A program made the translations under genes and the position numbers. A model generated the notes under the pieces. The model ran no database searches. It saw only the letters and a program-made list of their open reading frames with translations, and was not told the origin of the DNA. A DNA stretch of 24,000 bases. Source: Paraphotobacterium marinum (lineage in GTDB: Bacteria > Pseudomonadota > Gammaproteobacteria > Enterobacterales > Vibrionaceae). This document shows positions 1-24,000 of this stretch, in pieces. Positions within the stretch are counted from its first letter, which is position 1, and the number at the start of each line of letters is the position of its first letter. The DNA lies in NCBI RefSeq assembly GCF_002216855.1, contig NZ_CP022355.1, forward strand, positions 1,072,695-1,096,694, given 5' to 3'.

Positions 1-1
1 G

Positions 2-1660: not shown

Positions 1661-1687
1661 AGTTTTTATTTATTGAGAGAGAAATTT

Positions 1688-2017: not shown

Positions 2018-2025
2018 AGCATCTT

Positions 2026-2625: not shown

Positions 2626-2648
2626 CATAAAAAATTTTTACATTCTGA

Positions 2649-2677
2649 CTTGATAAAAATAAATTTGCCCCTATTTA
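2649..2677 (+). promoter_or_regulatory. Sigma-32 (heat-shock) type promoter for htpG
   Basis: CTTGATAA (2649..2656) is followed after a roughly 12-13 nt spacer by CCCCTATTTA (2668..2677). This matches the RpoH consensus CTTGAAA / CCCCATnT. It lies about 44 nt upstream of the htpG ATG, which has an AGGAG RBS at 2711..2715. A GC-rich CCCC box stands out in this AT-rich spacer. Confidence 0.6.
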
Positions 2678-2720
2678 TAAGACATATCAAAATTTTTATT
2701 CTTCAATCTTAGGAGTAACT

Positions 2721-4625: not shown

Positions 4626-4634
4626 ACATTAATT

Positions 4635-4657
4635 GTAAGTGGATAATATCCACTTAC
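4635..4657. terminator. Perfect 23-nt palindrome (hairpin) between htpG and adk; no U-tract
   Basis: gtaagtggata-a-tatccacttac has 11-nt arms centred on 4646. No T-run follows on either strand, so it is not a canonical intrinsic terminator. It may be an attenuator or an mRNA 3-prime stabiliser. Confidence 0.35.
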
Positions 4658-4677
4658 GAAATAAGAAAAGGTTTTAA

Positions 4678-5322
<645 letters not shown>

Positions 5323-5376
5323 AATCTGTAAAAGGTTAATTATTATCTGGATTAGTCCATCTTGTGGAAATAAAAT

Positions 5377-6348: not shown

Positions 6349-6387
6349 AGTTATGTTAATATCTTCTTTTATTTTTAGTTTATTTAT

Positions 6388-7689
6388 ATGAAGTTTCCAG
6401 GTAGAAGAAAAACAAAACATTATTTTCCCATTGATGATGCTAATAATCAAAGCTCATTAAAGTCCCAGAAGCAATTTAAACGCAGACATCTCATTGGGAT
6501 TGATCAAACTATGGTTGATATTGAGGCAAAAGTGTCTGATGACTTTCTTAGGAAGTTCGATTTAATAAAAGGTTCTTCTTTTATTATTGATAACCAAAAA
6601 GCTCTCAAGTTACATAATGAGCTTATTTCTGAAAATTTAATTGAATATGAACATCCTGGTGGAACTATAGCCAATACTTTACATAATTATTCTATGCTGG
6701 CTGATGATAAGTCTGTTTTGTTGGGAGTGATGAGTAAAAAAATCAACGTAGGATCTTTTGCTTACAAATATTTATGTCATTCATCTAGTCGAATGGATTT
6801 AAATTATCTTGATGCTGTCGATGGGCCGATTGGAAGATGCTATACATTAATTAGCTCTGATGGTGAACGTACATTTGCTATTAATAAAGGGTCTATGAAC
6901 GAATTATCACCTAAAGCTATTGATGAAAGTATTTTTCAAGATTCATGTGCTCTTGTTATAAGTGCTTATATCACAAGATGTGAAAGTTATGAAGAAATCC
7001 AGCGATCATCGGAAAAAGCTATTGCGATAGCAAAAAATTATAAGATACCAGTTGTTTTATCTACAGGTACAAAATTTCTCATACAAGATAGACCTGAATG
7101 GTGGTTAAACTTTATTAAAGAAAATATCGATATTTTAGCTATGAATGAAGAAGAATCAATGGCTTTAACAGGATGTGAAAATGTCATTGAATCAATGAAC
7201 CAATTATTAGATATTACTGATTATATATTATGTACAGTTGGTTCTGAAGGAATTTATACAGCTGGTTATACTGATGATGATGCTAAAAGATTAACAACTT
7301 TGCCATTAATCTCAAACTTTAAAGAGAAGTTTAATGAATACGAATTTAGTCGAGCAATGATGAAATCTGATTGCATACAACCTTTAAAAGTATTTTCTTA
7401 TAAAGCACCTTTCAAAGGCGGACCAGAAAAGATAAAAAATACAAATGGTGCAGGTGATGGGGCTTTAGCTGCCTTATTACATGACATTTCAGCAAATCAA
7501 TTTCATAGAGATAATTATCCTAATTCAGAAAAACATAATTTTAATTTTTTAACTTACTCTTCATTCTCGCAAGTTTGTAAATACGCAAATAGAGTTAGTT
7601 ACGAAGTTATTTCACAACACTCTCCTAGACTAATGAGAGGGCTTCCTGAAAAAGAGGATTGTTTAGAGGAAGCCTATTGGGATAATTAA
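6388..7689 (+). CDS. gsk: Inosine-guanosine kinase
   Basis: MKFPGRRKTKHYFP...GIDQTMVDIEAKV...NTNGAGDGALAALLHDI...SPRLMRGLPEKEDCLEEAYWD is collinear with E. coli Gsk over the whole length. Confidence 0.95.
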   Translation: MKFPGRRKTKHYFPIDDANNQSSLKSQKQFKRRHLIGIDQTMVDIEAKVSDDFLRKFDLIKGSSFIIDNQKALKLHNELISENLIEYEHPGGTIANTLHNYSMLADDKSVLLGVMSKKINVGSFAYKYLCHSSSRMDLNYLDAVDGPIGRCYTLISSDGERTFAINKGSMNELSPKAIDESIFQDSCALVISAYITRCESYEEIQRSSEKAIAIAKNYKIPVVLSTGTKFLIQDRPEWWLNFIKENIDILAMNEEESMALTGCENVIESMNQLLDITDYILCTVGSEGIYTAGYTDDDAKRLTTLPLISNFKEKFNEYEFSRAMMKSDCIQPLKVFSYKAPFKGGPEKIKNTNGAGDGALAALLHDISANQFHRDNYPNSEKHNFNFLTYSSFSQVCKYANRVSYEVISQHSPRLMRGLPEKEDCLEEAYWDN

Positions 7690-7695
7690 GAGTAA

Positions 7696-9357
7696 TTAAT
7701 ATCCATCGGTATGAATTTCTGATATTATTCTACCGGAAGGGTCATTAGAGTTTTTAAATGAGCTATCCCAATTTATTGCTTCTGGAGTAGAGCAAGCCAC
7801 TGTTGGACCACCAGGCACAAGTTCTAAAGAACCTTTTGTTTTAAACAGCTTTTCAAAGATATCTCTATAAAGGTATCCTTCCTTAGTTTTAGGAGTATTA
7901 AAAGGAAATTTGTATGAAGCATTTTTCATATCTTCATCAGATATTTTTTGTTCTGAATATTCCTTCAATGAATCAATCCAACTATAACCAACACCATCTG
8001 AAAATTGTTCTTTTTGCCGGTTAATGATCTCATTTGGTAAATTTTCTTTGAAAATATCTCTCAAAACCTGCTTTTCAATTTTTGATTTAGTTACCATTTT
8101 CAACTTTGGATCCATATTCATTGCTGCATCTAAAAACTGTTTGTCAAGAAATGGTACTCTAGTTTCAATTCCCCAAGCAGCCATGGATTTATTTGCTCGA
8201 TTACAGTCAAATTTATTTAATGCGAAAACTTTTCTTATAGTTTCTTTATGAAACTCATGATGATTTGGAGCTTTATGAAAATACAAATAGCCACCAAATA
8301 TCTCATCTGCGCCTTCTCCTGATAGAACCATTTTTATTCCCATTGCTTTTATTTTCCTAGCCATTAAAAACATTGGAGTAGAAGCCCTGATAGTTGTAAT
8401 ATCATATGTTTCTAGGTGATAAATTATATCTTCAAGAGAATCCAACCCTTCCTGAATAGTATACTCAAAACTATGGTGGATGGTTCCAATGTAATCAGCA
8501 ACAGTTTGTGCAGCTTTAAGATCAGGGGAATTTTTTAAACCAATTGCGAAAGAATGAAGAGATGGCCACCAAGCGGTTGATTTGCTATCATCTTCAATTC
8601 TTTTGGTTGAGAACTTTTTTGCGATTGAAGCAATAATGGAGGAGTCAAGACCACCTGATAGTAAGACACCGTAGGGTACATCACACATTAATTGTCTTTT
8701 AACAGCACTTTCTAATTCATGTTTAATCGCCTTTGGTGTTGAAAAATTAAGATTTTCAACTTTTGACGTTTCCCAGGATGGCTTATAGTATCTAATATAT
8801 GTCTTATTTTGGCTGGAGTAGTAATGTCCTGGGGGAAACTCAGATACATTTGAGCATACGTCCTCAAGAGCTTTAAGTTCAGATGCGATATAAATTTGTT
8901 CTATTTTATCAATTCCCTGGTATAATGGCACTATTCCAATATGGTCTCTAGCAATGAAGTATATATCTTTATTTTGATCATATAAAATAAAAGAAAAAAT
9001 ACCGTTTAATTTATTAATGAAATCAATTCCATATTTTTCGTATAAAGCTATGATTATTTCACAATCTGAGTCAGTTTGAAATTTGTAATCCATGACTTCA
9101 CTTCTTAACTCATTATGATTATATATTTCACCATTTACGGCAAGTACGATGGATTTATCATTGTTAAATAAAGGTTGTCCACCACTATTTAACCCAACAA
9201 TAGCCAGCCTTTCATGAGCTAAAATAACACTACTAGATGCAAAAATACCTGACCAATCAGGTCCTCTGTGTCTTAATTTTTTTGATTGGATTAATGCTAT
9301 TTTTCGCATTTTTTCCATATCATCTTTAAGTCCTAATATTCCTAATATTCCACACAT
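7696..9357 (-). CDS. asnB: Asparagine synthetase B (glutamine-hydrolysing)
   Basis: MCGILGIL carries the N-terminal nucleophile Cys2. SGGLDSS is the PP-loop. It aligns full-length to E. coli AsnB. Confidence 0.97.
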   Translation of the reverse strand: MCGILGILGLKDDMEKMRKIALIQSKKLRHRGPDWSGIFASSSVILAHERLAIVGLNSGGQPLFNNDKSIVLAVNGEIYNHNELRSEVMDYKFQTDSDCEIIIALYEKYGIDFINKLNGIFSFILYDQNKDIYFIARDHIGIVPLYQGIDKIEQIYIASELKALEDVCSNVSEFPPGHYYSSQNKTYIRYYKPSWETSKVENLNFSTPKAIKHELESAVKRQLMCDVPYGVLLSGGLDSSIIASIAKKFSTKRIEDDSKSTAWWPSLHSFAIGLKNSPDLKAAQTVADYIGTIHHSFEYTIQEGLDSLEDIIYHLETYDITTIRASTPMFLMARKIKAMGIKMVLSGEGADEIFGGYLYFHKAPNHHEFHKETIRKVFALNKFDCNRANKSMAAWGIETRVPFLDKQFLDAAMNMDPKLKMVTKSKIEKQVLRDIFKENLPNEIINRQKEQFSDGVGYSWIDSLKEYSEQKISDEDMKNASYKFPFNTPKTKEGYLYRDIFEKLFKTKGSLELVPGGPTVACSTPEAINWDSSFKNSNDPSGRIISEIHTDGY

Positions 9358-9509
9358 TAGTTTTGTTTTCCTTTTGAATTGAGTCCCTAAAATTAATATG
9401 CTTTATTTTTACTGTAAAATCTAGTACTTATTATCGAAGTTATATATTTTTCCTAAGAATTTTTTATATGGTAGGCATTTGATGACTCTAAAATTTTAAT
9501 GTCAACTTC

Positions 9510-9558
9510 ATTAAAACTCTTAATTACAACTATGAATATTGTAATTAAGAGTTTTAAT
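9510..9558. repeat. Perfect 20-bp inverted repeat with a 9-nt loop; possible nagA 3-prime hairpin
   Basis: attaaaactcttaattacaa (9510..9529), loop ctatgaata, then ttgtaattaagagttttaat (9539..9558), which is the exact reverse complement. It lies 51 nt downstream of the nagA stop on the minus strand. The stem is mostly A/T and no U-tract follows. Confidence 0.5.
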
Positions 9559-9608
9559 ATTGATAGATAAAGTCTTAAATTAGAATTGATTGGAATGAAG
9601 TGTTAATT

Positions 9609-10742
9609 TTAACTAATCATATTACCCTCAAAAACTGTACTTACCATTTTTAATGAGTGATCAAAAACTGCTAAGTTTGCTATTCTATTTTCTTTGATCC
9701 TGCCGAAATTTTGTTCACATTTAATTGCTTTAGCTGGATTAATGGTAGCCATTTTTATTGCTTCACTCAGGGGTATGCGTGTATTTAATACACAATTTTT
9801 AATTGCTTCAATCATAGTTAGAGAAGATCCACCTAATGTGTTATTTGAATCAACACACTGACCATCTTTGATGTAAATTTTGGTACCCACAAAATCAAAG
9901 CTTGGTATGTTGGAGGATGCTGCAGCTGTAGCATCAGTAACAAGAACCAACTTATCCGATAGAATGTTATGAGCTAACTCTATATTTGGGTATGAGACGT
10001 GAAAACCATCAGCAATAATTCCTGCAAATATTTCTTTTGATGAAAAAACTGCGCCTACAATACCAGGCTCTCTGCTATTTAAAGGTGTCATTGCATTAAA
10101 TAAATGCGTAGCAAATGAAATTCCATTTTTAAATGAATTCATTGCTTCTTCATATGTTGCCAAGGAGTGTCCGATTGAAACAATAACGCCGGCATCATTT
10201 AATTTTTTTATGAATTTTTCTGAATTTAATTCAGGCGCCAAGGTTATTTTTCTAATAATATCTTTATTTGAAATGATATAATTAACCATTTCTTTACTTA
10301 AGGGTTTTATAAAAGACTTATTATGAATACCTTTCTTTTTTTCGTTTAAATAAGGCCCCTCTAAATGAATTCCGAGTGAACTATTAATATTTGACTGTTG
10401 ATATGTTCTTACTGATTCAACAGCAATTTTCAAATCTTCTTCGGAGGCTGTAATAAAGGTAGGAAGAAAGTTTGTACACCCTGTTATTAAGTTTGTTTTA
10501 TGCATAATCTCAATGGTTTTAGGCGTTGTGTCTGAATTAAACATAACACCACCACATCCATTTAACTGGAGATCAATGAATCCTGGTGTAACGAAATTAC
10601 CATTTAAATCTATGGTTTTTATGGAAGAATCAATTTCTTCATTTTTACATACTTTTAGTATTTTATTATTCTTTATGATTATTGAGTGGTTATAGATAAA
10701 TTTGATGCCATCATGAATAATACAATTTGTAAGGACAAACAT
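9609..10742 (-). CDS. nagA: N-acetylglucosamine-6-phosphate deacetylase
   Basis: PGFIDLQLNGCGG, GIHLEGPYLN, ATHLFNAM, and DGFHV metal-ligand motifs. It is collinear with E. coli NagA. Its ATG shares one base with the nagB TAA (TAATG). Confidence 0.96.
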   Translation of the reverse strand: MFVLTNCIIHDGIKFIYNHSIIIKNNKILKVCKNEEIDSSIKTIDLNGNFVTPGFIDLQLNGCGGVMFNSDTTPKTIEIMHKTNLITGCTNFLPTFITASEEDLKIAVESVRTYQQSNINSSLGIHLEGPYLNEKKKGIHNKSFIKPLSKEMVNYIISNKDIIRKITLAPELNSEKFIKKLNDAGVIVSIGHSLATYEEAMNSFKNGISFATHLFNAMTPLNSREPGIVGAVFSSKEIFAGIIADGFHVSYPNIELAHNILSDKLVLVTDATAAASSNIPSFDFVGTKIYIKDGQCVDSNNTLGGSSLTMIEAIKNCVLNTRIPLSEAIKMATINPAKAIKCEQNFGRIKENRIANLAVFDHSLKMVSTVFEGNMIS

Positions 10743-11551
10743 TAAACCTCCTTAAATGTTGTAAGTTGGTCATGTTCTAGTTTTTTAAAATAATTTAAAG
10801 TTTTTACTTTCAATTCAATTGTTGCCTCTGGATCACATACTAGGATGGATTTTTTGTGAAGCTGTAACGCCGATACAGTCCATAAATGATTAACAGATCC
10901 TTCAACTGCAGCATGAACAGCATGAGCTTTATTCATTCCTGTAGCTAAAATCATAACTTCTTCTGCATCTAAGAGAGTACCAACACCGATGGTTAATGCA
11001 TATTTAGGTACTTTATTAATGTCGTTTTCAAAAAATCTAGAGTTTGCAATTAAAGTTTCTTCTGTTAAGGTTTTTATTCTTGTACGAGAGGATAATGAAG
11101 ATGTAGGTTCATTGAAAGCTATATGTCCATCGGTACCTACTCCACCTAGAAATAAGTGTATACCACCATAACTTTTAATCTTTTTCTCATAATTTAAGCA
11201 AACTTCCTCATGATTTTTAGACATCCCATCTAAAAGATTAATATTTTCAGGCAATATATCAATTTTTGAAAAAAAATTGTGGTGCATAAAATAGTGGTAA
11301 GATTGAGGATTATCTTTTTCTAATCCAACATATTCATCCATATTAAATGTCACTACATTTTTAAAGCTTACTATTCCTTTATTGTAAAATTCGATTAATT
11401 TTTTATAAGTTTTAAGAGGAGTACCTCCAGTTGGAAGTCCAAGTACAAATGGTTTTTCTGGTGTGGGTTGAAAAGTATTTATTTTATTAATAATTCTTTT
11501 GGCAGACCATAATGCAACATCATCACATGAATTTAATGGGACAACTCTCAT
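10742..11551 (-). CDS. nagB: Glucosamine-6-phosphate deaminase
   Basis: [38 protein letters not shown]. It aligns full-length to E. coli NagB. Confidence 0.97.
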
Positions 11552-11714
11552 ATCTTTTCCTTTGTTGTTTTTTTTTGATTTTACGTTAATAAATAAAAAT
11601 AAGAAATAAGTTAATGTTGATTGAGATCACAAAACACATTAAGTGAAATTGTATAAATAATGTATTTATTAGAATATTTATTCTTAAAAATTATAAACAA
11701 CAAGGAAAAATTCA

Positions 11715-13256
11715 GTGAATATATTAGGTTCTGTACAAAGGCTAGGTAAAGCCTTAATGTTGCCAATAGCTATCTTACCTATAGCTGCATTACTTCTGAG
11801 GCTTGGAGCTCCTGATGTGTTAAACATTCCATTTATGAGCTCATCTGGAAATGCGATTATTTCAAATCTTCCTTTGCTTTTCGCATTAGGTATAGGCATA
11901 GGTCTCTCTAAGGATGAGCACGGTTCAGCTGGTTTAGCTGCTGCTGTTTCATATTTTGTATTAGTTGCGAGTGCTAAAGCTATTAACCCTGATATTGATA
12001 TGAGCTTTTTTGCTGGTTTCATAGCAGGTATTATTGGAGGCGTCGTATATAATAAATTCAATGATGTGAAGCTTCCTGAATGGTTAGGATTTTTTGCAGG
12101 TAAACGTTTACCTCCAATTATGTCTGGAATAATTACACTAATTTTTGGTTTTGCAGCTGGGTATTTATGGCCATATGCTCAAAATGGTTTAAATGAAATA
12201 GCTCAAACTGTTCTAAGTTCCGGTTCTATTGGAGAATTTGGCTATGGTGTTTTGAATAGACTTTTACTTCCTTTTGGATTACACCACGTAATTAATAGTT
12301 ATATTTGGTTTTTACTTGGCAGTTGTCAGCAAATACAAGTAGATCCCGTAGCAGCACTTCACGGAGCAACTCATCTATGTGTTGATCCAAGTGTGACTAA
12401 AGACTTAGTTGTAGGGCAATCACATACTTTTTATTTTAATAATTCGGTAACGCCTGAAATACAAGCAACTGTCACAAAAATCACAAACAATATTGTTAAT
12501 GGTGATATAAGTAGGTTTTTAGCAGGTGATAAGTCTGCAGGTGTATATTTGGCAGGTTTTTTCCCAGTTATGATGGGCGGACTTCCTGGGGCAGCTTTAG
12601 CAATGTATTTTGCTGCACCCAAGGAGAATAGAGCTATTGTTGGTGGTATACTTTTCTCTCTAGGGTTTACAGCGTTTTTAACAGGAATAACTGAACCATT
12701 AGAGTTTTCGTTTGTATTTATAGCGCCCGTCTTATTTTTAATACATGCTATTTTAACTGGCTTATCTTTAGTTATAAGTAATGCTTTTGGTATATTGGAT
12801 GGTTTTGGCTTTTCAGCTGGTGCTATTGACTATGTATTAAACTGGGGTTTAGCTACAAAACCTTTAGCTTTACTAGTTCAAATTATTGCTTTTTTCTTTA
12901 TATATTTTATCATTTTTTATTTTTCAATTAAGTTTTTTAAGCTTAAAACACCTGGAAGAGAAGATGATTTTAATGCAACTACTGCAATGTCACAAAACTC
13001 AAAAACAGAACAAGAAACTTCAGAAAGAGGTAAAAATTTTATTGTTGCATTGGGTGGCGATGATAATATAGAAATAATAGATTCTTGCATTACTAGGTTA
13101 AGGTTAACTCTAAGGGACTCAACCACAATTAATGAAAACGAATTGAAAAGGCTAGGTGCAAAAGCAATCGTCAAACTATCAGATAAAAATATACAAGTTA
13201 TTCTAGGTACAATTGCAGAACAAGTTGCCAAAGAAATAAAAGCTTCAAAACAATAA
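11715..13256 (+). CDS. nagE: PTS N-acetylglucosamine transporter, EIIC-EIIB only (no EIIA domain)
   Basis: It has a GTG start with an AAGGA RBS at 11702..11706. MNILGSVQRLGKALMLPIAILPIAALLLRLG matches the E. coli NagE N-terminus. The EIIB active-site motif DSCITRLRLTL is present. The protein stops about 20 aa after EIIB, whereas E. coli NagE continues into a roughly 150-aa EIIA domain. It is divergent from nagBA, as in E. coli. Confidence 0.9.
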   Translation: MNILGSVQRLGKALMLPIAILPIAALLLRLGAPDVLNIPFMSSSGNAIISNLPLLFALGIGIGLSKDEHGSAGLAAAVSYFVLVASAKAINPDIDMSFFAGFIAGIIGGVVYNKFNDVKLPEWLGFFAGKRLPPIMSGIITLIFGFAAGYLWPYAQNGLNEIAQTVLSSGSIGEFGYGVLNRLLLPFGLHHVINSYIWFLLGSCQQIQVDPVAALHGATHLCVDPSVTKDLVVGQSHTFYFNNSVTPEIQATVTKITNNIVNGDISRFLAGDKSAGVYLAGFFPVMMGGLPGAALAMYFAAPKENRAIVGGILFSLGFTAFLTGITEPLEFSFVFIAPVLFLIHAILTGLSLVISNAFGILDGFGFSAGAIDYVLNWGLATKPLALLVQIIAFFFIYFIIFYFSIKFFKLKTPGREDDFNATTAMSQNSKTEQETSERGKNFIVALGGDDNIEIIDSCITRLRLTLRDSTTINENELKRLGAKAIVKLSDKNIQVILGTIAEQVAKEIKASKQ

Positions 13257-13307
13257 GTAAACTAAAAAGAATACTCGATATATTTAATAAGAATGTATAT
13301 CATTTTT

Positions 13308-13336
13308 AAAAAAGCCAGACAATTCTGGCTTTTTTT
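13308..13336 (+). terminator. Rho-independent terminator after nagE
   Basis: aaaaaagccaga-caat-tctggctttttt. The core stem is AGCCAGA/TCTGGCT, flanked by an A-tract and a T7 run. It has the classic bidirectional intrinsic-terminator shape and lies about 50 nt after the nagE stop. Confidence 0.8.
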
Positions 13337-13420
13337 GTTTTATTTTAGGTAAAAAAGAAACTTATACTTTATTTGTCAGTGGTTATAATTAACTTTTGTA
13401 AATTTATAGTGAAGAGCAAT

Positions 13421-14083
13421 ATGATGATAGTTAAAACAAATTTTTTTAATAAGAATTCGGTTGAATTAGCTCAAAGCCTTATAGGAAAAATGATTTATAG
13501 AAAGTATAATCACCTTGATTTAAGGGCAATTATAATTGAAACGGAAGCTTATGAATTAAATGATGAAGCTAGCCATGCTTCACTGGGATATTCGCCTAAA
13601 ATAAAGGCCTTATACATGACACCTGGAACAATTTATATGCACTTTGCTCATGGGCAGGCTTCATTTGGAATACACTCAAGGAAGAATGGCGGTGCCGTTT
13701 TGATTAAATCCGCTAGAATTTATCCTGATGATTTAGATAACTCTAATGTTATAGAAACAATGCAATCTCTTTCATTATTATGTGGCGGCAAAAAGAGAAG
13801 CACTGATAAGCTTTTAACTGGACAAACGATCTTATGCAAATCACTTGATTTAAAAGTTAAAGATTGGAGCCAAAAACAATTTAATAATACTTTCAATATT
13901 CAAAATATCGATTATGAACCACAAAAAATAATCGCAACAACAAGAGTAGGTATACCTCCTAATAGAGACAATGGACTTTTGAATAGATTCATTGACTATA
14001 AATATGTAAGACAATCTTCAAAAAATCCATTAACAACCAGAAAGAAAACAAATTTTATTTTAGAAGATCATTGGCATGATTAA
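13421..14083 (+). CDS. mpg: Divergent 3-methyladenine (alkylpurine) DNA glycosylase, Mpg/AAG family
   Basis: Family landmarks appear in the correct order: FF.K.SVELAQSLIGK, IIIETEAY..NDEASHA, PGTIYMH, GAVLIKSARIYP, TTRVGI, NRF..YKYV. I prefer the ATG at 13421 (GAAGAG upstream) over the TTG at 13373. The central substrate-pocket region is poorly conserved. Confidence 0.7.
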   Translation: MMIVKTNFFNKNSVELAQSLIGKMIYRKYNHLDLRAIIIETEAYELNDEASHASLGYSPKIKALYMTPGTIYMHFAHGQASFGIHSRKNGGAVLIKSARIYPDDLDNSNVIETMQSLSLLCGGKKRSTDKLLTGQTILCKSLDLKVKDWSQKQFNNTFNIQNIDYEPQKIIATTRVGIPPNRDNGLLNRFIDYKYVRQSSKNPLTTRKKTNFILEDHWHD

Positions 14084-14235
14084 TATTTTTCGCTAGCACA
14101 CTTAATATAAACTTATATCTGTGTATTTTTTAATATAAAATTATTAATGTCACATCTATTTTATATACATTTGAATTAGGTTAAACTATCATAATGTCTA
14201 AAATATTAAAATAACTTATAAATGAGGTTTGTTTG

Positions 14236-15885
14236 ATGAGTGTAGAAGTGGCTCGTCCAAAGAATTTTATAGAACAAAAAATAGATTCAGATTTAGAAAA
14301 CAATGTTGTTACAACTGTCCACACCAGATTCCCCCCAGAACCTAATGGCTTTTTACATATTGGACATGCTAAATCTATTTGTTTAAACTTCGGTTTAGCG
14401 AAAGAATATAATGGCACATGTAATTTAAGATTTGATGATACTAACCCGTTAAAAGAAACTGCAGAGTTTGTTGAAGCCATTAAAAAAGATGTAAAGTGGT
14501 TGGGTTTTAAATGGGATGAACTTAGACACTCTTCTGATTATTTTGAACAGTTATATCTATACGCAAAAGAACTAATTAGTTCGGGTCTAGCATATGTAGA
14601 TGAATTAACCGATGATGAAATAAGACAGTATAGAGGAAATTTTACTACACCAGGTAAGAACAGCCCCTATAGAGATAGAAGTATATCAGAGAATCTCAAC
14701 TTATTTGAGAAAATGAAAATGGGTGGCTTTCAAGAAGGTAAGGCGTGCTTAAGAGCAAAAATTGACATGTCGTCAAGCTTTATGGTTATGCGTGATCCTG
14801 TTCTTTATAGAGTTCGATTTATTCAGCATCATCAAACTAAAGATAAATGGTGTATATATCCCATGTATGATTTTACCCATTGTATTTCTGATGCCATTGA
14901 AAATATTTCACATTCATTATGTACATTAGAGTTTCAAGATAATAGAAGAATTTACGATTGGATTCTTGATAATATTTCAATAAAATCTAGACCCCATCAA
15001 TATGAGTTTAGTAGACTTAATCTTGAATATACTTTAACTTCCAAAAGAAAATTAAGCGATCTAGTTGAAGAGCGATTTGTTGATGGTTGGGATGATCCTA
15101 GAATGCCAACGATATCTGGTTTGAGAAGAAGAGGATATACTCCTGCTTCTATTAGAGAGTTTTGCTCAAGAATTGGTGTTACCAAACAAGAAAATACAAT
15201 TGAATTAAATGCTCTTGAAGCTTGTATTCGGGAAGATCTAAATACTAATGCTAGACGAGTTATGGCTGTATTAGATCCCGTAAAAGTAATTATTGAAAAT
15301 TTTGATGACCAACCATTTTTTATAGATGCCAAAAATCATCCTAATAATGATGAGATGGGAACTCGTAAAGTGCAGTTTTCAAGAGAGATTTGGATTGAAA
15401 GAGAAGACTTTAAGGTAGAGGCCAATAAAAAATTCAAACGTTTAGTTTTGGGTAAAGAGGTTCGGCTACGCAATTGTTTTGTTATTAAAGCTAATGATGT
15501 TGTATATGATGAATACGGATCTATAAAAGAAATAATTTGCACATATGATCCAAATACATTAGGACAAGATCCTTTAGATGGTAGGAAAGTAAAAGGAGTG
15601 ATTCATTGGGTTTCGAGTACAAATGCAATCTCAGCTCAATTTAGAGTCTATGAAAAACTTTTTAATCATAAAAATCCAGCACAAGTTGAAGATTTCAGAA
15701 CAGAACTTAACTTAAAATCATTGGAAACCTTCAATGGATTTGTAGAAAACTCAGTAAAAGAAAATGATATAGAGGAAAGGTATCAATTTGAAAGAAAGGG
15801 CTATTTTACACAAGACAATAAAGATTTTAGCAAAGAATTTCTAATATTTAATCAGATTGTTGGTTTAAGAGAAACAAATAAATAG
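14236..15885 (+). CDS. glnS: Glutamine--tRNA ligase
   Basis: [19 protein letters not shown] carries the HIGH motif and LTSKRKLS the KMSKS-type motif. It is collinear with E. coli GlnS. I prefer the ATG at 14236, which has GAGG 8 nt upstream, over the TTG at 14233. Confidence 0.97.
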
Positions 15886-15922
15886 CTTTCAGTTAAACAA
15901 AAGTTTTAAAAAATTGTTATAT

Positions 15923-15955
15923 AAGAAATAGATTTTTATAAATCTATTTCTTTTT
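15923..15955. terminator. Bidirectional hairpin terminator between the convergent glnS and fur genes
   Basis: aagaaatagattt (15923..15935), loop ttat, aaatctatttctt (15940..15952), then ttt. The 13-bp stem is perfect. The right arm overlaps the last fur codons and its TAG stop. Confidence 0.65.
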
Positions 15956-16390
15956 ATGAAGGTCCGGATTATCTTGGCAATTCTTTTTTGTGCAATGACC
16001 GTAAAGATAAAGACTATGGTTTGTTAATCTAATATTGTATCTATCAGCTATTTCTGTTTGTCTATTTTCGATTAAGTCATCGTTAAATTCAATCACTTTC
16101 CCACAATCAAGGCAAACCAAATGATCATGATGTTCTTGCTTGGAAAGTTCAAAAACCGATTTTCCACCTTCAAAATGATGCCTTGTGACAATGCCTGCAT
16201 CATCAAACTGATTTAATACTCTATATACAGTCGCTAGTCCAATTTCTTCGCCAATGTCTAAAAACTTTTTATAGAGCTCTTCGGCACTAATATGCTGATT
16301 TTCAGGATGTTGCAAAAATTCCAGTATTTTTAACCTTGGTAAAGTAACCTTTAAACCTGCTTTTTTTAGAGCATTGTTGTTTTCCATCAT
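15944..16390 (-). CDS. fur: Ferric uptake regulator
   Basis: LKKAGLKVTLPRLKILE...GLATVYRVLNQFDDAGIV...HHDHLVCLDCGKVIEF...HSLYLYGHC. It has the same length as E. coli Fur (148 aa) and aligns to it. Confidence 0.97.
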   Translation of the reverse strand: MMENNNALKKAGLKVTLPRLKILEFLQHPENQHISAEELYKKFLDIGEEIGLATVYRVLNQFDDAGIVTRHHFEGGKSVFELSKQEHHDHLVCLDCGKVIEFNDDLIENRQTEIADRYNIRLTNHSLYLYGHCTKKNCQDNPDLHKKK

Positions 16391-16406
16391 ATATTCCTAT
16401 GATTAA

Positions 16407-16919
16407 TTATAAATTCATTTCAGTTTTGATTTGTTTAACCCAATTTAACACACGTTCTTCGGTCATTTCAGGTTGTCGATCTTCATCAATACACAAACCA
16501 ACCAATTGATTATCTTCTAATAATGCTTTAGATTCTTCGAATTCATATCCCTCAGAAGATGTTTTACCAATTAAAGAAGCACCATTATTAGTTAAAATTT
16601 CTGCAATTGCGCCCATAGCATCACAAAAATATTCAGCATAATCTTCCTGATCACCACATCCAAAAATACCAACTTTCTTGCCGTTAAAGTCAATCGTTTC
16701 TAATTCAGGAAAAAAATCATCCCAATCACACTGATTTTCTCCATAATACCATGTTGGAATCCCAAATAAAAATAAGTCGTAGTTTTCAAAATCTTCTTTA
16801 GTGGAATTAGCGATATCTTTAACATCTACAATATCAGAACCAATTTTATCCTGAATGATTTTTGAAATTTCTTCTGTATTTCCTGTATCACTCCCAAAAA
16901 ACAAACCTACTTTTTGCAT
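16407..16919 (-). CDS. fldA: Flavodoxin 1
   Basis: Homology starts at MQKVGLFFGSDTGNTEE (ATG at 16919, AAGG RBS upstream). GIPTWYYGE.QCDWDDFFP, FGCGDQEDYAEYFCDA, and IDEDRQPE follow. The 57 upstream codons in the ORF track have no flavodoxin homology. Confidence 0.95.
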   Translation of the reverse strand: MQKVGLFFGSDTGNTEEISKIIQDKIGSDIVDVKDIANSTKEDFENYDLFLFGIPTWYYGENQCDWDDFFPELETIDFNGKKVGIFGCGDQEDYAEYFCDAMGAIAEILTNNGASLIGKTSSEGYEFEESKALLEDNQLVGLCIDEDRQPEMTEERVLNWVKQIKTEMNL

Positions 16920-16942
16920 ACCATTACCTTTATTATATTTAT

Positions 16943-17149
16943 TTAAGTTACTATAGTTGATATTATACTCTTTACAATAAAACCAAAACAACCCAAAAAT
17001 AAAATAAACCAAATAATTATCTTTCCAAATTTTGAAATATTTGTTTTTTTCGTTATTGTAAGTATTGTGTAAACTATAAAAAGAACACAAAATATGAGCA
17101 TAAAATTCAATATTAAATTTTCATAAAGAACTAATTTCTCATAGTTCAT
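16943..17149 (-). CDS. Hypothetical small protein, predicted two-TM hairpin (68 aa from the first ATG)
   Basis: The ORF fills the ybfF-fldA spacer on the same strand. Its ATG overlaps the ybfF 3-prime end by 11 nt (ATGAACTATGA). Two hydrophobic stretches, LILNFMLIFCVLFIVYTILTI and IIIWFILFLGCFGFIVKSII, are separated by the basic loop TKKTNISKFGK. It has no recognisable homologue and no clear SD. AT-rich sequence is biased toward F/I/L codons, so it may be spurious. Confidence 0.25.
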   Translation of the reverse strand: MNYEKLVLYENLILNFMLIFCVLFIVYTILTITKKTNISKFGKIIIWFILFLGCFGFIVKSIISTIVT

Positions 17150-17936
17150 ATTGATAAAACTTTTCAATTATTGCTATTAATTTAACTGGATACTCAGCGT
17201 GCACCCAATGTCCAGCGTTTGCAATTATATGAATTTTGCTATTTGGTACTTGCTTTAAACTATCACTAGAATATTCTGGCAATATGTAATCAGATAAGTT
17301 ACCTTTTATAAAAAGAGTTTTAGTTTGGATTGGTTTAATTTCGGTCCATTCCATTATCTTGGAATAATTTTCTGACAATGATTTTAAGTTAAATTTCCAT
17401 GAATAAGAGCCATTAGTTTTAACCAAAGATTTTAGCAAAAATTGAGAAATAGATTCTTCTTTTACATAAGTATTTAAAACACTGTATATTTCACTCCTAT
17501 TTAAATTTTCATCTTTTAAAATGCTTTCAGTTTTAAGTAGACCCTCAAAAATAGATTTGTGTTTGTTCACTTTATAACTGATAGGTGCAATATCAATTAT
17601 AACTAATGATTGTACTTTTTTTGGGTTTAAACTTGCACATTTTAAGGCAACTTTTCCTCCCATTGAATGACCAATAAGATGAGCGGACTCAATATTTTTA
17701 TTTTTCATCAACTGTAATATATCTTCCGCCATAGTATCGTAATCATGTGTTATTGAGTGAAACGAATTACCATGATTTCTTACATCAACACAAATACAAT
17801 AAGAATGGCTTGAAAAGTGAGTAGCAATTCTTCTAAGATTACCAGAATCTCCAAATAAACCATGGATAAAAATAATGACATTTTTGCTACTGGATTCACC
17901 AAGTGAGTTATAGGATAAGTTTAAATTATTTCGCAT
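17139..17936 (-). CDS. ybfF: Alpha/beta-hydrolase esterase YbfF
   Basis: IIFIHGLFGD, the nucleophile elbow GHSMGGK, and AGHWVHAE. It is collinear with E. coli YbfF and divergent from seqA, as in E. coli. Confidence 0.9.
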   Translation of the reverse strand: MRNNLNLSYNSLGESSSKNVIIFIHGLFGDSGNLRRIATHFSSHSYCICVDVRNHGNSFHSITHDYDTMAEDILQLMKNKNIESAHLIGHSMGGKVALKCASLNPKKVQSLVIIDIAPISYKVNKHKSIFEGLLKTESILKDENLNRSEIYSVLNTYVKEESISQFLLKSLVKTNGSYSWKFNLKSLSENYSKIMEWTEIKPIQTKTLFIKGNLSDYILPEYSSDSLKQVPNSKIHIIANAGHWVHAEYPVKLIAIIEKFYQYEL

Positions 17937-18018
17937 TATAATAATGTTTTAATAGAGAGTTTGTTATTAAAATTATATAATCTAAGATAACATAACATTA
18001 ATTTGTGTGAAATAAAAA

Positions 18019-18545
18019 ATGAAAAGAATAGATCTAGATGAAGATTTGTATAACTATATAGCAAGTCAAACAAAGAGAATTGGGGAAAGTGCTTCAGATA
18101 TTCTTCGCAGATTACTGAACTTTGAGAAATTAACAGAAGACGTCTCTAATGTTGAAGTCATTAGTAAATTAGCATCATCTGAAAATCATATAAAAAAGTT
18201 TCATAGAGATGAAGCTTTATTAAATAATTTAGAGTTTCTAAGAAATAGCTCTACAATAAAAAAATAACCGATAAATTTATGATCATCTTGTCTCAACTGT
18301 ATTTAGTTGATTCTCAAAGGTTTAAAAATGTGGAAGTAAGGGGAAGAAGTAGATTATATTTGTCACCATCAAAAGAGCTTTTAATTAAGAGTGGCACTAA
18401 TACTCGTCCTAAACAAATTCCAAGAACTTCATTTTGGATTATCACTAATACTAACACTGAAAGAAAAAAACAAATTATTGAAGATGTAATGCAACAGATG
18501 GATTTTAAGAAACTGACTATTGAATCAGTTATCCAAATAATATAG
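18019..18545 (+). pseudogene. seqA: seqA (replication-origin sequestration protein) interrupted by a single-base frameshift in an A7 tract
   Basis: ORF 18019..18267 encodes the SeqA N-terminal domain ([27 protein letters not shown]). The frame of ORF 18279..18545 is open from 18249. It reads [22 protein letters not shown]...FWIITNTNTERKK, which is the SeqA C-terminal DNA-binding domain. The two frames are joined by a -1 shift at 18258..18264. Confidence 0.9.
18258..18264 (+). other. In-phase A_AAA_AAA -1 slippery heptamer followed directly by TAA, at the seqA frame break
   Basis: The zero frame reads AT[A AAA AAA] TAA. The -1 frame continues ATA ACC GAT AAA TTT ATG (ITDKFM), restoring SeqA homology. 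Confidence 0.6.
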
Positions 18546-18561
18546 GAGCATACTTGTTACA

Positions 18562-20202
18562 ATGAAAACTCATCCAAGAGCTGGCCTCAAAGCAATAGAA
18601 AGTGATTTGATTGATTGTAAAAAGCTTGAAAATGCATATTACAATAAAAAACCATTAAAAGATGAAAAAGACACTTATGTTTCATTTGGAACTTCTGGAC
18701 ATAGAGGGTCATCTTTGAAAAGTTCTTTTAATGAACTTCATATTTTTGCGATTACATTAGCTATCATTGATTTTAGAAAAAAAAATGAAATAAATGGCCC
18801 AATTTTTGTTGGTATGGATACCCATCTTTTATCAAAGCTTGCAATGCAAAGTGTCTTGCAGGTTTTATCATTTCATGGAATTAAAACTTTAACATCGGAG
18901 AAAGAATTTGTCCCAACTCCAGCATTATCCTTTGCTATTCTAAAACATAATAGAACGAATAGTCAGGATAACTTGTCAGATGGTATTATAATAACACCAT
19001 CTCACAACCCTCCAGAAGATGGAGGTATAAAGTATAATTTTACTCATGGCGGGCCATCAGAAGAAAGTATAACGAAATTTATAGAAAATAGAGCTAATGA
19101 AATTTTGTTTTCGGGATTAGTTAATTTTAATGAATTTAGAAGTCAATCATATTTAATGTCTGACTCTATTTCTGAATATGATTTCTTAACGCCATATGTA
19201 AGTGATTTAAGTAATGTTATTAACTTTGAAAAAATTAAAGCTTCAAATCTAAAAATTGCTGTTGACCCAATGGGGGGAGCTGGACTGAAATACTGGCAAA
19301 AAATTTCTGATTTTTACGATTTAAATATTGATATTATAAATAAGAAAATAGATCCACAGTTTAGTTTTATGACTCTTGATAAGGACGGAGTCATTAGAAT
19401 GGATTGTTCATCCGAGTATGCTATGAATAGTCTCTTAGAACATTGCGAGGATTATGATTTGTTGCTTGGGAATGATCCTGATTTTGACCGTCATGGTGTC
19501 GCGACAAAAGCAGGACTTATGAAACCCAATCATTTTCTATCAGTTTGTATCGACTATTTATTTAAAACAAGAACTGAATGGAATAAAATTTCTCAAAATG
19601 TTGGAAAAACACTGGTATCAAGCTTAATGGTCGATAGAGTTGCAAAATCAAATAAGCTCACTGTTTATGAAGTACCTGTTGGTTTCAAATGGTTTGTTAA
19701 AGGTTTACTGAACCATGAAATAGGTTTTGCTGGAGAGGAAAGTGCAGGAGCTTCTTTTCTTAGGTTAGATGGTAAAACATGGACAACTGATAAGGATGGG
19801 ATTATTTTGTGTTTGCTTGCGGCCGAGATTATGGCGGTTGAAGGTATATCTCCTCAGACTTACTATAATAGTTTAGAAAAGAAATTAGGTAAATCCTATT
19901 ATACACGAATACATTTAACAGCTAATAAAAAACAAAAAGACAAACTATTAAACTTTTTAGAATCCAATTTTAAGCATAAATTTCTTGCTGAAGAAAAAAT
20001 TACACAAGTGCTCACATGCGCGCCTGGAAATAATGAAAAAATTGGCGGGATAAAAATTGAAACCGACAATGGATGGTTTGTCGCAAGACCTTCAGGAACT
20101 GAAGATTTTTTGAAGGTCTACTGTGAAAGCTTCATTAGTGAAGACCATTTACAAAAAATTATAAAGGGAGCTGAAAAAATCATCTACGAAATAATGCATT
20201 AA
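18562..20202 (+). CDS. pgm: Phosphoglucomutase
   Basis: FGTSGHRGS carries the active-site Ser. ITPSHNPPEDGGIKYN, GNDPDFDRHG, GEESAGASF, and ARPSGTED follow. It has the same length as E. coli Pgm (546 aa). It contains an intact in-frame A9 tract at 18777..18785. Confidence 0.97.
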   Translation: MKTHPRAGLKAIESDLIDCKKLENAYYNKKPLKDEKDTYVSFGTSGHRGSSLKSSFNELHIFAITLAIIDFRKKNEINGPIFVGMDTHLLSKLAMQSVLQVLSFHGIKTLTSEKEFVPTPALSFAILKHNRTNSQDNLSDGIIITPSHNPPEDGGIKYNFTHGGPSEESITKFIENRANEILFSGLVNFNEFRSQSYLMSDSISEYDFLTPYVSDLSNVINFEKIKASNLKIAVDPMGGAGLKYWQKISDFYDLNIDIINKKIDPQFSFMTLDKDGVIRMDCSSEYAMNSLLEHCEDYDLLLGNDPDFDRHGVATKAGLMKPNHFLSVCIDYLFKTRTEWNKISQNVGKTLVSSLMVDRVAKSNKLTVYEVPVGFKWFVKGLLNHEIGFAGEESAGASFLRLDGKTWTTDKDGIILCLLAAEIMAVEGISPQTYYNSLEKKLGKSYYTRIHLTANKKQKDKLLNFLESNFKHKFLAEEKITQVLTCAPGNNEKIGGIKIETDNGWFVARPSGTEDFLKVYCESFISEDHLQKIIKGAEKIIYEIMH

Positions 20203-20244
20203 ATTTGAGTGGATATTAATTAAGTTTATTGAAAGAGGACTGTT

Positions 20245-20997
20245 GTGAACAATTTTAATCTCGAAAAAATTTTAAATGAGTTTTTGGATATTAAAAATAT
20301 TAAAGATTATTGCCCAAATGGGCTTCAAGTTCAGGGTAGAAGTGATATTAAAAATATTATTTTAGGCGTAACTGCATGTGAAGATTTAATTGATGTTGCA
20401 ATTCGAGAAAAGGCAGATGCGTTAATAGTTCATCATGGATATTTTTGGAAGAATGAATCAAGCGTTATAACCAAAATGAAATATCACAGAATATCTAAAC
20501 TTATTAAAAATGATATAAATTTATTTGCTTATCATTTACCCTTAGATATATCAAAACATGTTGGTAATAATGTTGAGTTTGCAAAGTCCTTGAATTTGAT
20601 TATTAATGGGCCCTTACCTGACAATAATGTTATTTTATCGGCTTGCACAGAAACTCCTGAAAATATCGAGCAATTTGTCAAGCGTTTAAACTTTTTATTA
20701 GACAGAGATGCTTTATTGATTAGCCCAGATAATAAATCAAAACAAATAAGTAAGGTAGCAATATGTACTGGAGGTGGTCAGGACTTTATAGATTTAGCAG
20801 CTGATAATGAATTTGATCTGTTCATTTCAGGAGAAATTTCAGAAAGAACTTATCATATAGCAAAAGAAAGAAACATTTATTATTGCGCCGCTGGGCATCA
20901 CGCAACCGAAACCTTTGGTGTTAACAGCCTATCAACCTGGCTTCAATCTAATTTGAAGTTAAATGCTAAGTTTGTAGATATAAAAAATCCTGTTTAA
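20245..20997 (+). CDS. ybgI: NIF3-family metal-binding protein YbgI (GTP cyclohydrolase 1 type 2 homologue)
   Basis: It has a GTG start. DYCPNGLQVQG, ALIVHHGYFWK, YHLPLD, and AGHHATE are present. It is collinear with E. coli YbgI. Confidence 0.93.
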   Translation: MNNFNLEKILNEFLDIKNIKDYCPNGLQVQGRSDIKNIILGVTACEDLIDVAIREKADALIVHHGYFWKNESSVITKMKYHRISKLIKNDINLFAYHLPLDISKHVGNNVEFAKSLNLIINGPLPDNNVILSACTETPENIEQFVKRLNFLLDRDALLISPDNKSKQISKVAICTGGGQDFIDLAADNEFDLFISGEISERTYHIAKERNIYYCAAGHHATETFGVNSLSTWLQSNLKLNAKFVDIKNPV

Positions 20998-21009
20998 AAC
21001 AGGATTTTT
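20983..21009. terminator. Bidirectional intrinsic terminator between the convergent ybgI and gltA genes
   Basis: aaaaatcctgtt (20983..20994), loop taa (the ybgI stop codon), aacaggattttt (20998..21009). The arms are perfectly complementary, with A/T runs on both sides. Confidence 0.75.
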
Positions 21010-21018
21010 AAACTCAAA

Positions 21019-22307
21019 TTATTCCCTTTCATGTATTGGACTAAAATCTCTTTTTGATTCCCCGGTGTATAACTGTCTTGGACGACCAATTCTAAATAGA
21101 GGATCTTTGTGCATTTCAAGCCAATGAGAAATCCAACCAACAGTTCTAGCAACTGCAAAAATAACTGTAAACATCGAAGTGGGAATTCCTATTGCCTTTA
21201 GTATTATTCCAGAATAAAAGTCCACATTAGGATATAATTTTTTCTCAATGAAATATTCGTCTGATAATGCAATTTTTTCAAGCTCCATTGCAACATCCAA
21301 CAAAGGATCTTTAATGTTGAGTTCTTTAAGAACGTTATGACAAGTTTCCCTCATTACTGTAGCTCTTGGATCGTAATTTTTGTAGACTCGGTGACCAAAG
21401 CCCATTAATCTAAATGGATCATTTTTGTCTTTAGCTTTGTCGACATACTCTTTTATATTTTCAACACTACCTATTTGCTCAAGCATTTTTAAGCAAGCTT
21501 CATTAGCACCACCGTGTGCAGGTCCCCAAAGCGATGCTATTCCTGCAGCAATACATGCAAAAGGGTTTGCTCCAGATGAACCAGCAAGTCTAACAGTTGT
21601 CGTTGAAGCATTTTGCTCATGATCAGCATGAAGAGTAAAGATAACATCCATCGCTTTTGCAACAGTAGGGTTGACTTCATATTTTTCACATGGTGTGGCG
21701 AACATCATATGAAGAAAATTTTCTGCATAACCAAGGTCATTTTGTGGGAACATAAAAGGTTGACCATTTGTATATTTGAAACACATTGCAGCGAGGGTTG
21801 GCATTTTTGCTACTAATCGAAATGCTGCTACCTCTCTATGTTTCTCATTGGATACATCTAGTGAATCGTGATAAAAAGCTGATAATGCACCTACTACTCC
21901 ACACATTATAGCCATGGGGTGTGCGTCTCTTCTAAAACCTTGAAAAAAGAAGCGATCTGCTGATGTACCATAGTATGTCTAGTAATTGTATTTTTAAAAG
22001 ACTCATACTCTTCCTTGGAAGGAGCCTGCCCATATATAAGGATATAACAAACTTCTAAATAATTTGCTTTCTTCGCAAGTTCATCGATTGGATATCCTCG
22101 GTGAAGAAGAATTCCTTTGTTGCCATCAATATAAGTGATTTTTGATTCACAAGATGCTGTAGATAGGAAACCAGGATCATATGTATAAATTCCATTTTTT
22201 CCTAGGCTTTGAATATCAATAACTTTATATCCATATGTACCTTCTAAAACAGGAAATTCTCCAAGTGTTTCATCATTACAATTAAAGTTTACTAATTTAT
22301 TGGTCAT
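21019..22307 (-). pseudogene. gltA: gltA (type II citrate synthase) interrupted by a single-base frameshift in a T6 tract (coding strand)
   Basis: ORF 21906..22307 is the GltA N-terminus ([31 protein letters not shown]...[12 protein letters not shown]). The ORF 21019..21915 frame, extended upstream, reads [26 protein letters not shown]...[10 protein letters not shown]...[14 protein letters not shown]. Both parts align residue for residue with E. coli GltA. The frames switch at 21942..21948. Confidence 0.9.
21942..21948 (-). other. In-phase U_UUU_UUC -1 slippery heptamer at the gltA frame break
   Basis: The coding strand reads GCT TC[T TTT TTC] AAG GTT TTA in the zero frame, with the stop 12 codons later. 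The -1 frame reads TTT TTT CAA GGT TTT AGA AGA GAC, giving FFQGFRRD against E. coli LFHAFRRD. Confidence 0.6.
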
Positions 22308-22392
22308 TTGACTTCCTTAGTGACAAAAATTATGAATTTGTTAATGTTAACCATATTAAACTAAGTTACACCAATGATGTAACAATCATTTT

Positions 22393-22448
22393 TGATAAAT
22401 GAGATATCATTTATTTTAAGCATTATAAATGATAAATAAGATATTATT
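22393..22448. repeat. Two copies of a 19-nt AT-rich motif in the gltA-sdhC divergent control region; the first copy contains a dyad
   Basis: tgataaatgagatatcatt (22393..22411) and tgataaataagatattatt (22430..22448) match at 17 of 19 positions. Copy 1 contains ataaatga-gata-tcatttat, a dyad with 8-bp arms. The function is unknown. Confidence 0.4.
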
Positions 22449-22657
22449 TTTTATATTTATTATTTCAAAAATAAAGATTATAATTTTTTCAGGAATATTT
22501 AAAGCATTTGTGCCATAAACAAGGCTAATTAATTCATTTATTCTTTTTTTGGGTATTAGATCACATTAGCTAGTCTTATTATTCAAATAAATGGCTTTTA
22601 ACGCTAACATATGTTCCGCCAATAAATATATTCTAATAATACAAACGGAGATAAATT

Positions 22658-23038
22658 GTGAAAAGTCAAAAGGTTCGTCCGACTAATCTTGATTTGACGA
22701 CTATCAAACAGCCAGTTTCGGCCATTGCTTCAATTCTTCATAGAATTTCTGGTGTCATTAACTTTATTCTTGTAGGGTTTTTGCTTATTTTGCTAGATTT
22801 CTCTTTACAATCCTCAAACAACTATCAGTCGATTGTTTCATTTTTACATAATTATTTTGTAATTTTTATTATGTGGGGATTCTTAACAGCTCTAACTTAT
22901 CATCTATTTGCCGGCATTAGACACATGCTCATGGATTTAGGGTATTTTGAAGAAATAGCCTCAGGTAGAAAAAGTGCCATAGTAGTTATGATTATAACAA
23001 TTATTTTTTCTCTAATCATTTTGGGAGCTTTAGTATGA
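22658..23038 (+). CDS. sdhC: Succinate dehydrogenase cytochrome b556 subunit
   Basis: It has a GTG start with a GGAG RBS at 22645..22648. RPTNLDLTTIKQPVSAIASILHRISGV and YHLFAGIRHMLMDLGY are present. It is collinear with E. coli SdhC. Confidence 0.93.
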   Translation: MKSQKVRPTNLDLTTIKQPVSAIASILHRISGVINFILVGFLLILLDFSLQSSNNYQSIVSFLHNYFVIFIMWGFLTALTYHLFAGIRHMLMDLGYFEEIASGRKSAIVVMIITIIFSLIILGALV

Positions 23039-23382
23039 TTAAGCAAGCATCTTCATTTGGACGAAATGGTGTGCAAGACTATGTATTCACACGTGCAACT
23101 GCAGTCATCATTGTATTATATGTCTTGTGGATTGTAGGGTTTATGTTATTTAAATCAGATGGTTCCTTTATTCAGTGGAAAAGTTTTTTTGAAAGTAATT
23201 TTAATAAAGTGTTTACGATTATCACCTTAATATCAATTCTTATTCATGCTTGGATTGGGCTTTGGCAAGTTTTTACAGATTATGTCAAAAACACCTTATT
23301 GAGGGCAATTTTACAATTTTTTGTTGTAACAATTCTATTAATTTACGTGATTTATGGTTTTTTTATTTTGTGGGGAGCTTAA
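23035..23382 (+). CDS. sdhD: Succinate dehydrogenase hydrophobic membrane anchor subunit
   Basis: It overlaps sdhC by ATGA. GVQDYVFTRATAVII and HAWIGLWQVFTDY are present, with three TM segments. It aligns with E. coli SdhD. Confidence 0.92.
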   Translation: MIKQASSFGRNGVQDYVFTRATAVIIVLYVLWIVGFMLFKSDGSFIQWKSFFESNFNKVFTIITLISILIHAWIGLWQVFTDYVKNTLLRAILQFFVVTILLIYVIYGFFILWGA

Positions 23383-24000
23383 ATGAATATTCCAGTAAGA
23401 GAGTTTGACGCTATAGTTATTGGTGCTGGTGGAGCTGGGATGAGAGCAGCTCTTCAAATTTCTGAACAAGGTTTGTCTTGTGCACTATTGTCAAAGGTAT
23501 TTCCAACGCGTTCGCATACAGTTTCGGCTCAAGGAGGGATAACGGTTGCATTGGGTAATTCGCACAAAGATGATTGGCAGTGGCATATGTATGATACAGT
23601 CAAAGGTTCTGATTATATTGGTGACCAAGCTGCAATTGAATATATGTGTCATCAAGGACCAAAATCTGTAGTAGAGCTTGAAAAAATGGGTCTTCCTTTT
23701 TCAAGGTTTGATAATGGAACTATATACCAAAGACCGTTTGGTGGTCAATCTAAAGAGTTTGGTGGTGAGCAAGCAGCTCGTACAGCTGCCTGTGCTGATA
23801 GAACGGGCCATGCGTTACTTCATACACTTTATCAACAAAACATAAAACATAAGACAACAATTTTTTCTGAATGGTACGCTTTAGATTTGGTAAAAAATCA
23901 AGATGGTGTTGTCGTTGGTGCAACAGCAATTTGTATAGAAACAGGCGAAGTTAATTATTTTAAAGCTAAAGCTACAGTATTAGCCACTGGCGGTGCTGGA
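23383..24000 (+). CDS. sdhA: Succinate dehydrogenase flavoprotein subunit, 3-prime end cut by the window edge
   Basis: It is absent from the ORF track because it has no stop codon inside the window. My translation from the ATG at 23383, directly after the sdhD TAA, is [53 protein letters not shown]...[13 protein letters not shown]...[10 protein letters not shown]. This nearly matches E. coli SdhA, including the FAD-binding GAGGAG and the His of the SHT motif. It is open through nt 24000 (206 codons). Confidence 0.95.

Follow-up and report, generated by a model that had tools for sequence, protein, structure and literature searches.

The frame break in seqA of the Paraphotobacterium marinum reference genome is very probably a homopolymer under-call rather than a site of recoding

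In E. coli dnaX, a conserved -1 frameshift occurs on the slippery heptamer A_AAA_AAG, which lies in phase on Lys codons and has an SD-like element on its 5′ side and a stem-loop on its 3′ side. The new frame soon meets a stop codon, and an intact long ORF yields a second, shorter product (gamma/tau). Among insect endosymbionts, poly(A) frameshifts rescued by slippage typically involve tracts of 9-10 A or more, and some of these tracts are conserved across lineages. In Buchnera and Blochmannia such frameshifts have been verified in genomic DNA; they lie within A runs of AT-rich, reduced genomes and the two halves of the gene are otherwise intact (PMC3017870, PMC5009743, PMC5574713). A third origin for split ORFs is technical. 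The first closed genome of Clostridium autoethanogenum, another bacterium with 31% G+C, was sequenced on the PacBio RS II and contained approximately 240 single-base deletions that Sanger sequencing showed to be erroneous; most lay in homopolymers of more than 5 bases, and they had been annotated as frameshifts (PMC4687164). Here we compare a frame break in the seqA gene of P. marinum with these three systems.

The window, by which we mean the whole stretch of 24,000 nucleotides that was analysed, has a G+C content of 31% and derives from chromosome I of P. marinum NSCS20N07D. The corresponding deposit (CP022355-CP022357) comprises two chromosomes and a plasmid (PMC5649133). As assembled, seqA is divided between two ORFs on the forward strand. 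The 5′ part (18019..18267) encodes 82 aa comprising the N-terminal oligomerisation domain and linker (Pfam SeqA_N, E 8.4e-22), and is separately annotated as the hypothetical protein WP_404824941.1. The 3′ part (18264..18545) encodes the C-terminal domain that binds hemimethylated GATC and is read in frame -1 with respect to the 5′ part; its annotation is ASK78539.1 / CF386_05725. The ORF listed for this half begins only at an internal ATG at 18279 and runs to 18545 (88 aa; E 1.5e-29). At the junction the 5′ ORF reads ATA AAA AAA TAA, with exactly 7 A (18258..18264, forward strand), and ends at the TAA next to the run. This TAA is no more than the codons ATA ACC shifted by one base. Homology of the 3′ part starts at 18264 (ATA ACC GAT AAA TTT ATG...), that is, 5′ of the ATG. 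We considered whether the C-terminal half might be translated independently from ATG 18279 and rejected this, because no Shine-Dalgarno-like sequence precedes that codon in ATAACCGATAAATTTATG and because the homology continues upstream of it.

When the two frames are joined at the A7 run, a SeqA protein of 175 aa results. The N-terminal oligomerisation domain (PF17206) occupies residues 1-35 with a score above the gathering score, and the C-terminal domain (PF03925) residues 79-172 (E 1.6e-32); the two are contiguous only after correction to A8. In the joined protein the match to the C-terminal profile starts at position 14 instead of 23, nine positions earlier, and gains approximately 9.5 bits. 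Moreover, alignment with the solved structure of E. coli SeqA (3fmt) passes unbroken over the junction (KRAVNRFMLLLSTLY on the E. coli side; E 2.2e-33). The joined sequence is 100% identical to the intact 175-aa SeqA (P0122) of a second assembly described below. These results uphold the first-pass annotation of the window in what it had proposed about the structure of the gene, namely that the N- and C-terminal domains sit on two ORFs in different frames, that homology in the second frame begins 5′ of its ATG, that the switch point is the A7 run (AT[A AAA AAA] TAA, as read directly), that no other lesion is present in seqA and that joining restores the full-length product.

Domains, full-length alignment and synteny all mark the gene as a regular SeqA family member, SeqA being a negative regulator of replication initiation. 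Both Pfam domains are present in the joined product, which aligns end to end with E. coli SeqA, for which the structures 3fmt, 1lrr and 1xrx are known, and the motifs GR(S/T)R and (I/V)TNTNT(E/G)RK of the SeqA homologues aligned with it are kept. Identity to SeqA of other Vibrionaceae and Enterobacterales is only ~40-46%, and the linker is species-specific. A YbfF-like alpha/beta hydrolase (17139..17936, reverse strand) is encoded upstream and pgm (18562..20202, forward strand) directly downstream, giving the order fur-fldA-ybfF-seqA-pgm, which we take to match the enterobacterial gene order. The best match to a sigma-70-like promoter upstream of seqA lies at 17953..17981 on the forward strand (10/12, a consensus match only).

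The genome of NSCS20N07D was obtained from one SMRT cell on the PacBio RSII and assembled with HGAP 3.0, with Illumina sequencing used for 16S amplicons only (PMC5649133). The assembly is thus the product of an error-prone long-read platform without short-read polishing. A second data set is available as GCA_965138095.1 and as the Logan assembly of the short-read run ERR14335601, both of which encode the 175-aa SeqA. Comparison of the assemblies at the DNA level spans window positions 8019..24000 and covers 15,984 bases, in which there are 0 mismatches and only 2 gaps, each of one base. In both gaps the window is the shorter sequence, and each lies in an A/T homopolymer. At the seqA run (18258..18264) the second assembly has A8 where the window has A7 and reads ATA AAA AAA ATA, that is, I K K I. 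At 21943..21948, within gltA, it has A7 where the window has A6. The second assembly appears to represent the same strain, because there are 0 substitutions in 16 kb, compared with ~3% divergence in the environmental relatives. Ten other window proteins are identical residue for residue between both assemblies; the genes for eight of these lie in 2026..11551, five being inside 1..8018.

The compared stretch contains 18 homopolymers of at least 7 bases, which make up ~0.8% of positions, and the probability that two random differences would both fall in such runs is ~7e-5. Two of these 18 runs differ and none of the 53 runs of six bases does; there is no further difference. An in-frame A9 in pgm (18777..18785, forward strand) is called alike by both assemblies, therefore the long-read consensus did not under-call every long run. 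The second affected tract breaks gltA, the gene for citrate synthase (21019..22307, reverse strand), into an ORF of 133 aa (21906..22307) and one of 298 aa (21019..21915), the A6 of the forward strand being T6 on the coding strand (T7 in the second assembly). In the second assembly gltA is intact and encodes 429 aa. This lesion lies 3.7 kb from the seqA break and is what chiefly raises the suspicion of a systematic artefact of assembly.

An A8 tract was found at the seqA site in 9 of 9 loci from eight environmental metagenome relatives (Tara and others; ~96-97% DNA identity). The gltA tract is likewise full-length in these relatives wherever it is covered, with GG AAAAAA replacing G AAAAAAA and the total length unchanged. 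In a cluster at 90% identity, all 14 distinct full-length SeqA variants read the junction in one frame. Within the species, purifying selection acts on each half of seqA, with dN/dS of 0.26-0.41 for the N-terminal half with the linker and 0.05 for the C-terminal half. The Lys-Lys dipeptide at the junction is not conserved outside the species. A search of a collection of genome contigs with the joined SeqA returned no confirmed relative, and an exact DNA pattern allowing A7 or A8 had no match in the genome-contig and metagenome-contig collections searched. P. marinum appears to be absent from these collections.

Two members of the SeqA set depart from the usual length. One environmental variant has 174 aa and lacks one linker residue (SKLASS to SKASS). 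Another has 90 aa, ends in ...IKKITDKNHVR and comes from a 529-bp contig; it is probably a contig-end or chimeric artefact. The A-tract is not frameshifted in either (P0128/P0133 pair).

We consider it very probable that the seqA frameshift reflects under-calling of a homopolymer by a PacBio-only consensus and not recoding. On this reading, the organism would possess an ordinary, uninterrupted seqA gene of 175 codons, in which codons 80-83 (ATA AAA AAA ATA) would contain an A8 run. The PacBio RSII/HGAP3 consensus, without short-read polish, would have called this run one base short as A7; the missing A would place the rest of seqA in the -1 frame and expose the TAA. The same kind of error would have turned the T7 of gltA into T6, and neither recoding nor slippage rescue nor pseudogenisation would be required. 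The signature, which consists of one-sided single-base deletions that are confined to long A/T runs, occur without substitutions and break conserved genes, fits the documented artefact. As in C. autoethanogenum, a long-read-only consensus of an AT-rich genome (31% G+C) is involved, all discrepancies are single homopolymer bases lost from the long-read record, and the split ORFs are restored by short-read data. The C. autoethanogenum errors were confirmed by Sanger sequencing, whereas the P. marinum case is a comparison of assemblies over 16 kb. Extrapolation from 2 differences per 16 kb gives ~325 per genome (Poisson 95% range roughly 40-1,200), which lies within ~two-fold per base of C. autoethanogenum and in the same order of magnitude. 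From the observed A7/A8 and A6/A7 differences, the 0 substitutions, the intact genes elsewhere and the sequencing platform, we infer an error of the PacBio consensus instead of a mutation in the DNA preparation used. Some points run counter to the artefact. The PacBio read count implies very high coverage, at which Quiver-type polishing is often better than 1 error per 8 kb. In addition, homopolymers are also genuine hotspots of mutation, therefore the signature alone does not separate error from mutation.

It is very unlikely that seqA is a two-frame gene by design, expressed through dnaX-like -1 frameshifting or transcriptional slippage at the A7 run. Shared with E. coli dnaX are the in-phase slippery heptamer on Lys codons (AT[A AAA AAA] TAA, of the type X_XXY_YYZ) and a nearby stop in the new frame; the stop is adjacent to the heptamer and both halves of the gene are intact. 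However, no other sequence of the species has the frame break, not even the second assembly, otherwise identical to the window across 16 kb, and therefore the two-frame arrangement is not conserved: the second assembly, the nine loci and the 14 protein variants all have A8 or a single frame. The motif itself is common in the window and not enriched, with AAAAAAA counted 42 times against 64 +/- 13 expected from shuffles. Off-frame stops are ubiquitous. In the part of dnaX present in the same window, a stop in the -1 frame occurs within 2 codons at 40% of positions, and the range for off-frame stops is 26-40%. We therefore discount the TAA next to the heptamer as evidence and reject it as a designed stimulator. 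Nor is there any sign of the stimulatory stem-loop, pseudoknot or SD-like sequence that accompanies recoding of the dnaX type. The 76 nt downstream of the run fold no better than shuffled sequences (-9.9 kcal/mol, z -0.26), and by inspection the 18 nt upstream (AAGAAATAGCTCTACAAT) contain no SD-like stimulator (GGAG/AGGA). An RNA element at the break was also considered and rejected, as no Rfam family matches anywhere in the window and there is no terminator-like site. Thus, the dnaX frameshift is conserved and has its SD-like element and stem-loop, whereas the seqA break is seen in a single assembly and stimulators were looked for without success. Moreover, the long ORF of dnaX is intact and the shift adds a second, shorter product, but in seqA the shift would be needed for the sole functional product.

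A genuine and very recent deletion from A8 to A7 in the laboratory stock sequenced in 2017, which would make seqA a fresh pseudogene, is unlikely, although homopolymers are hotspots of replication slippage and seqA is dispensable in Vibrio cholerae (PMC2865523), therefore a real loss of seqA would be viable. This explanation requires two independent gene-breaking deletions, in seqA and gltA, within 16 kb that bears no substitution, and, extrapolated to the whole genome, it would imply frameshifts in the hundreds, a load that is implausible in a strain that can be cultured. Moreover, the two changes are in the direction of the PacBio artefact, the PacBio record being the shorter (PMC4687164), and the pathway reconstruction of the genome paper has a complete TCA cycle (PMC5649133). 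Under a genuine deletion some full-length SeqA might still arise adventitiously, through an extra A added by RNA polymerase or a ribosomal -1 slip. Slipping by -1 on the in-phase heptamer yields exactly the wild-type protein; insertions during transcription do occur in A/T runs, at a frequency that increases exponentially as the run lengthens (PMC5574713), the run here being A7 as assembled. It is nevertheless quite improbable that A7 is real in the type-strain culture, perhaps as a mixture of A7 and A8, with SeqA and GltA partly functional through slippage of RNA polymerase or -1 slippage of the ribosome. If true, a replication regulator would be subject to slippage rescue or phase variation in a free-living Vibrionaceae bacterium with a reduced genome. 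The likeness to the endosymbionts extends to an AT-rich reduced genome, a frameshift within an A run and halves that are otherwise intact. However, the endosymbiont frameshifts were verified in genomic DNA and involve longer tracts, whereas in P. marinum the tract is A7, independent sequencing did not reproduce the frameshift (A8 in the assembly with 0 substitutions), and the gene of the relatives is in frame. The reverse error, in which A7 would be correct and the A8 of seqA and the A7 of gltA would have been over-called in the second data set, is scarcely credible. Nothing specific speaks for it beyond the formal symmetry of comparing two assemblies. Against it, A8 is also present in eight independent metagenome assemblies from different projects, both longer calls give back full-length conserved proteins, and the total length of the gltA tract is the same in the relatives, despite the exchange of GG AAAAAA for G AAAAAAA.

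Of the three origins that the first-pass annotation had left open for the break, a homopolymer miscall is therefore favoured, by the A8 of the second assembly and the relatives, by the gltA lesion and by the PacBio RSII-only origin of the genome. For recoding or slippage rescue the evidence is contrary, given the A8 in an independent assembly and in relatives and the want of downstream structure. The reading of the run as a slippery site stands as far as an in-phase heptamer followed by a stop is concerned; it loses force in that the motif is no more frequent than in shuffled sequence and is not accompanied by stimulators. It had been stated that A8 in genomic reads would speak against recoding, and A8 is indeed what the genomic data contain, the source being an independent read set rather than the original reads. 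The comparison of tract length and of both halves in relatives, which had been suggested, found A8 throughout and both halves in one frame. The break displays every testable mark of a long-read homopolymer artefact, and it departs from both the dnaX type and the endosymbiont type.

With the break taken as a homopolymer under-call, it has little biological significance in itself and its value is practical. Of the complete Vibrionaceae genomes, the P. marinum reference is described as the smallest, and it probably contains on the order of hundreds of gene-splitting homopolymer deletions. Therefore, inferences on its gene content, pseudogene counts and genome reduction should be rechecked against the short-read assembly. 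In the window alone, seqA and gltA are each present as two pieces, and the pieces of seqA are recorded as separate hypothetical proteins. The case also bears on scans for recoding in AT-rich long-read assemblies, where an under-called homopolymer mimics an in-phase slippery heptamer beside a stop.

Several other features of the window merit description. The 3′ 1.66 kb of dnaX (1..1660, forward strand) contains four in-frame A runs: A9 (984..992), A11 (1107..1117), A7 (1175..1181) and A8 (1428..1435). Two of them, A9 and A11, fall in the interval from Pfam domain III to the tau-specific domain V, presumably the region in which E. coli (by -1 frameshifting) and Thermus (by transcriptional slippage on A9) make gamma. 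With one additional A, translation ends after one or two codons (...EKKN* at A9 and ...EEKKKR* at A11). This proximity of stops is not significant and only suggestive, given the 40% of dnaX positions with a -1-frame stop within 2 codons.

Two gene calls upstream of seqA differ between annotations. The YbfF-like hydrolase at 17139..17936 (reverse strand) is named 'histidine kinase' in GenBank and UniProt (ASK78538.1) and alpha/beta fold hydrolase in RefSeq. Its homologue in the second assembly matches Pfam Abhydrolase_1/_6 and Hydrolase_4, and the GenBank name is probably an annotation error. The flavodoxin ORF (16407..17167, reverse strand) is given as 227 aa from a TTG codon both by the ORF list of the window and by one annotation. 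In the alternative gene call, FldA has 170 aa and a DUF2788 gene of 68 aa stands on its own between fldA and ybfF. The 227-aa form looks like an over-extension of the start codon that overlaps the small DUF2788 gene.
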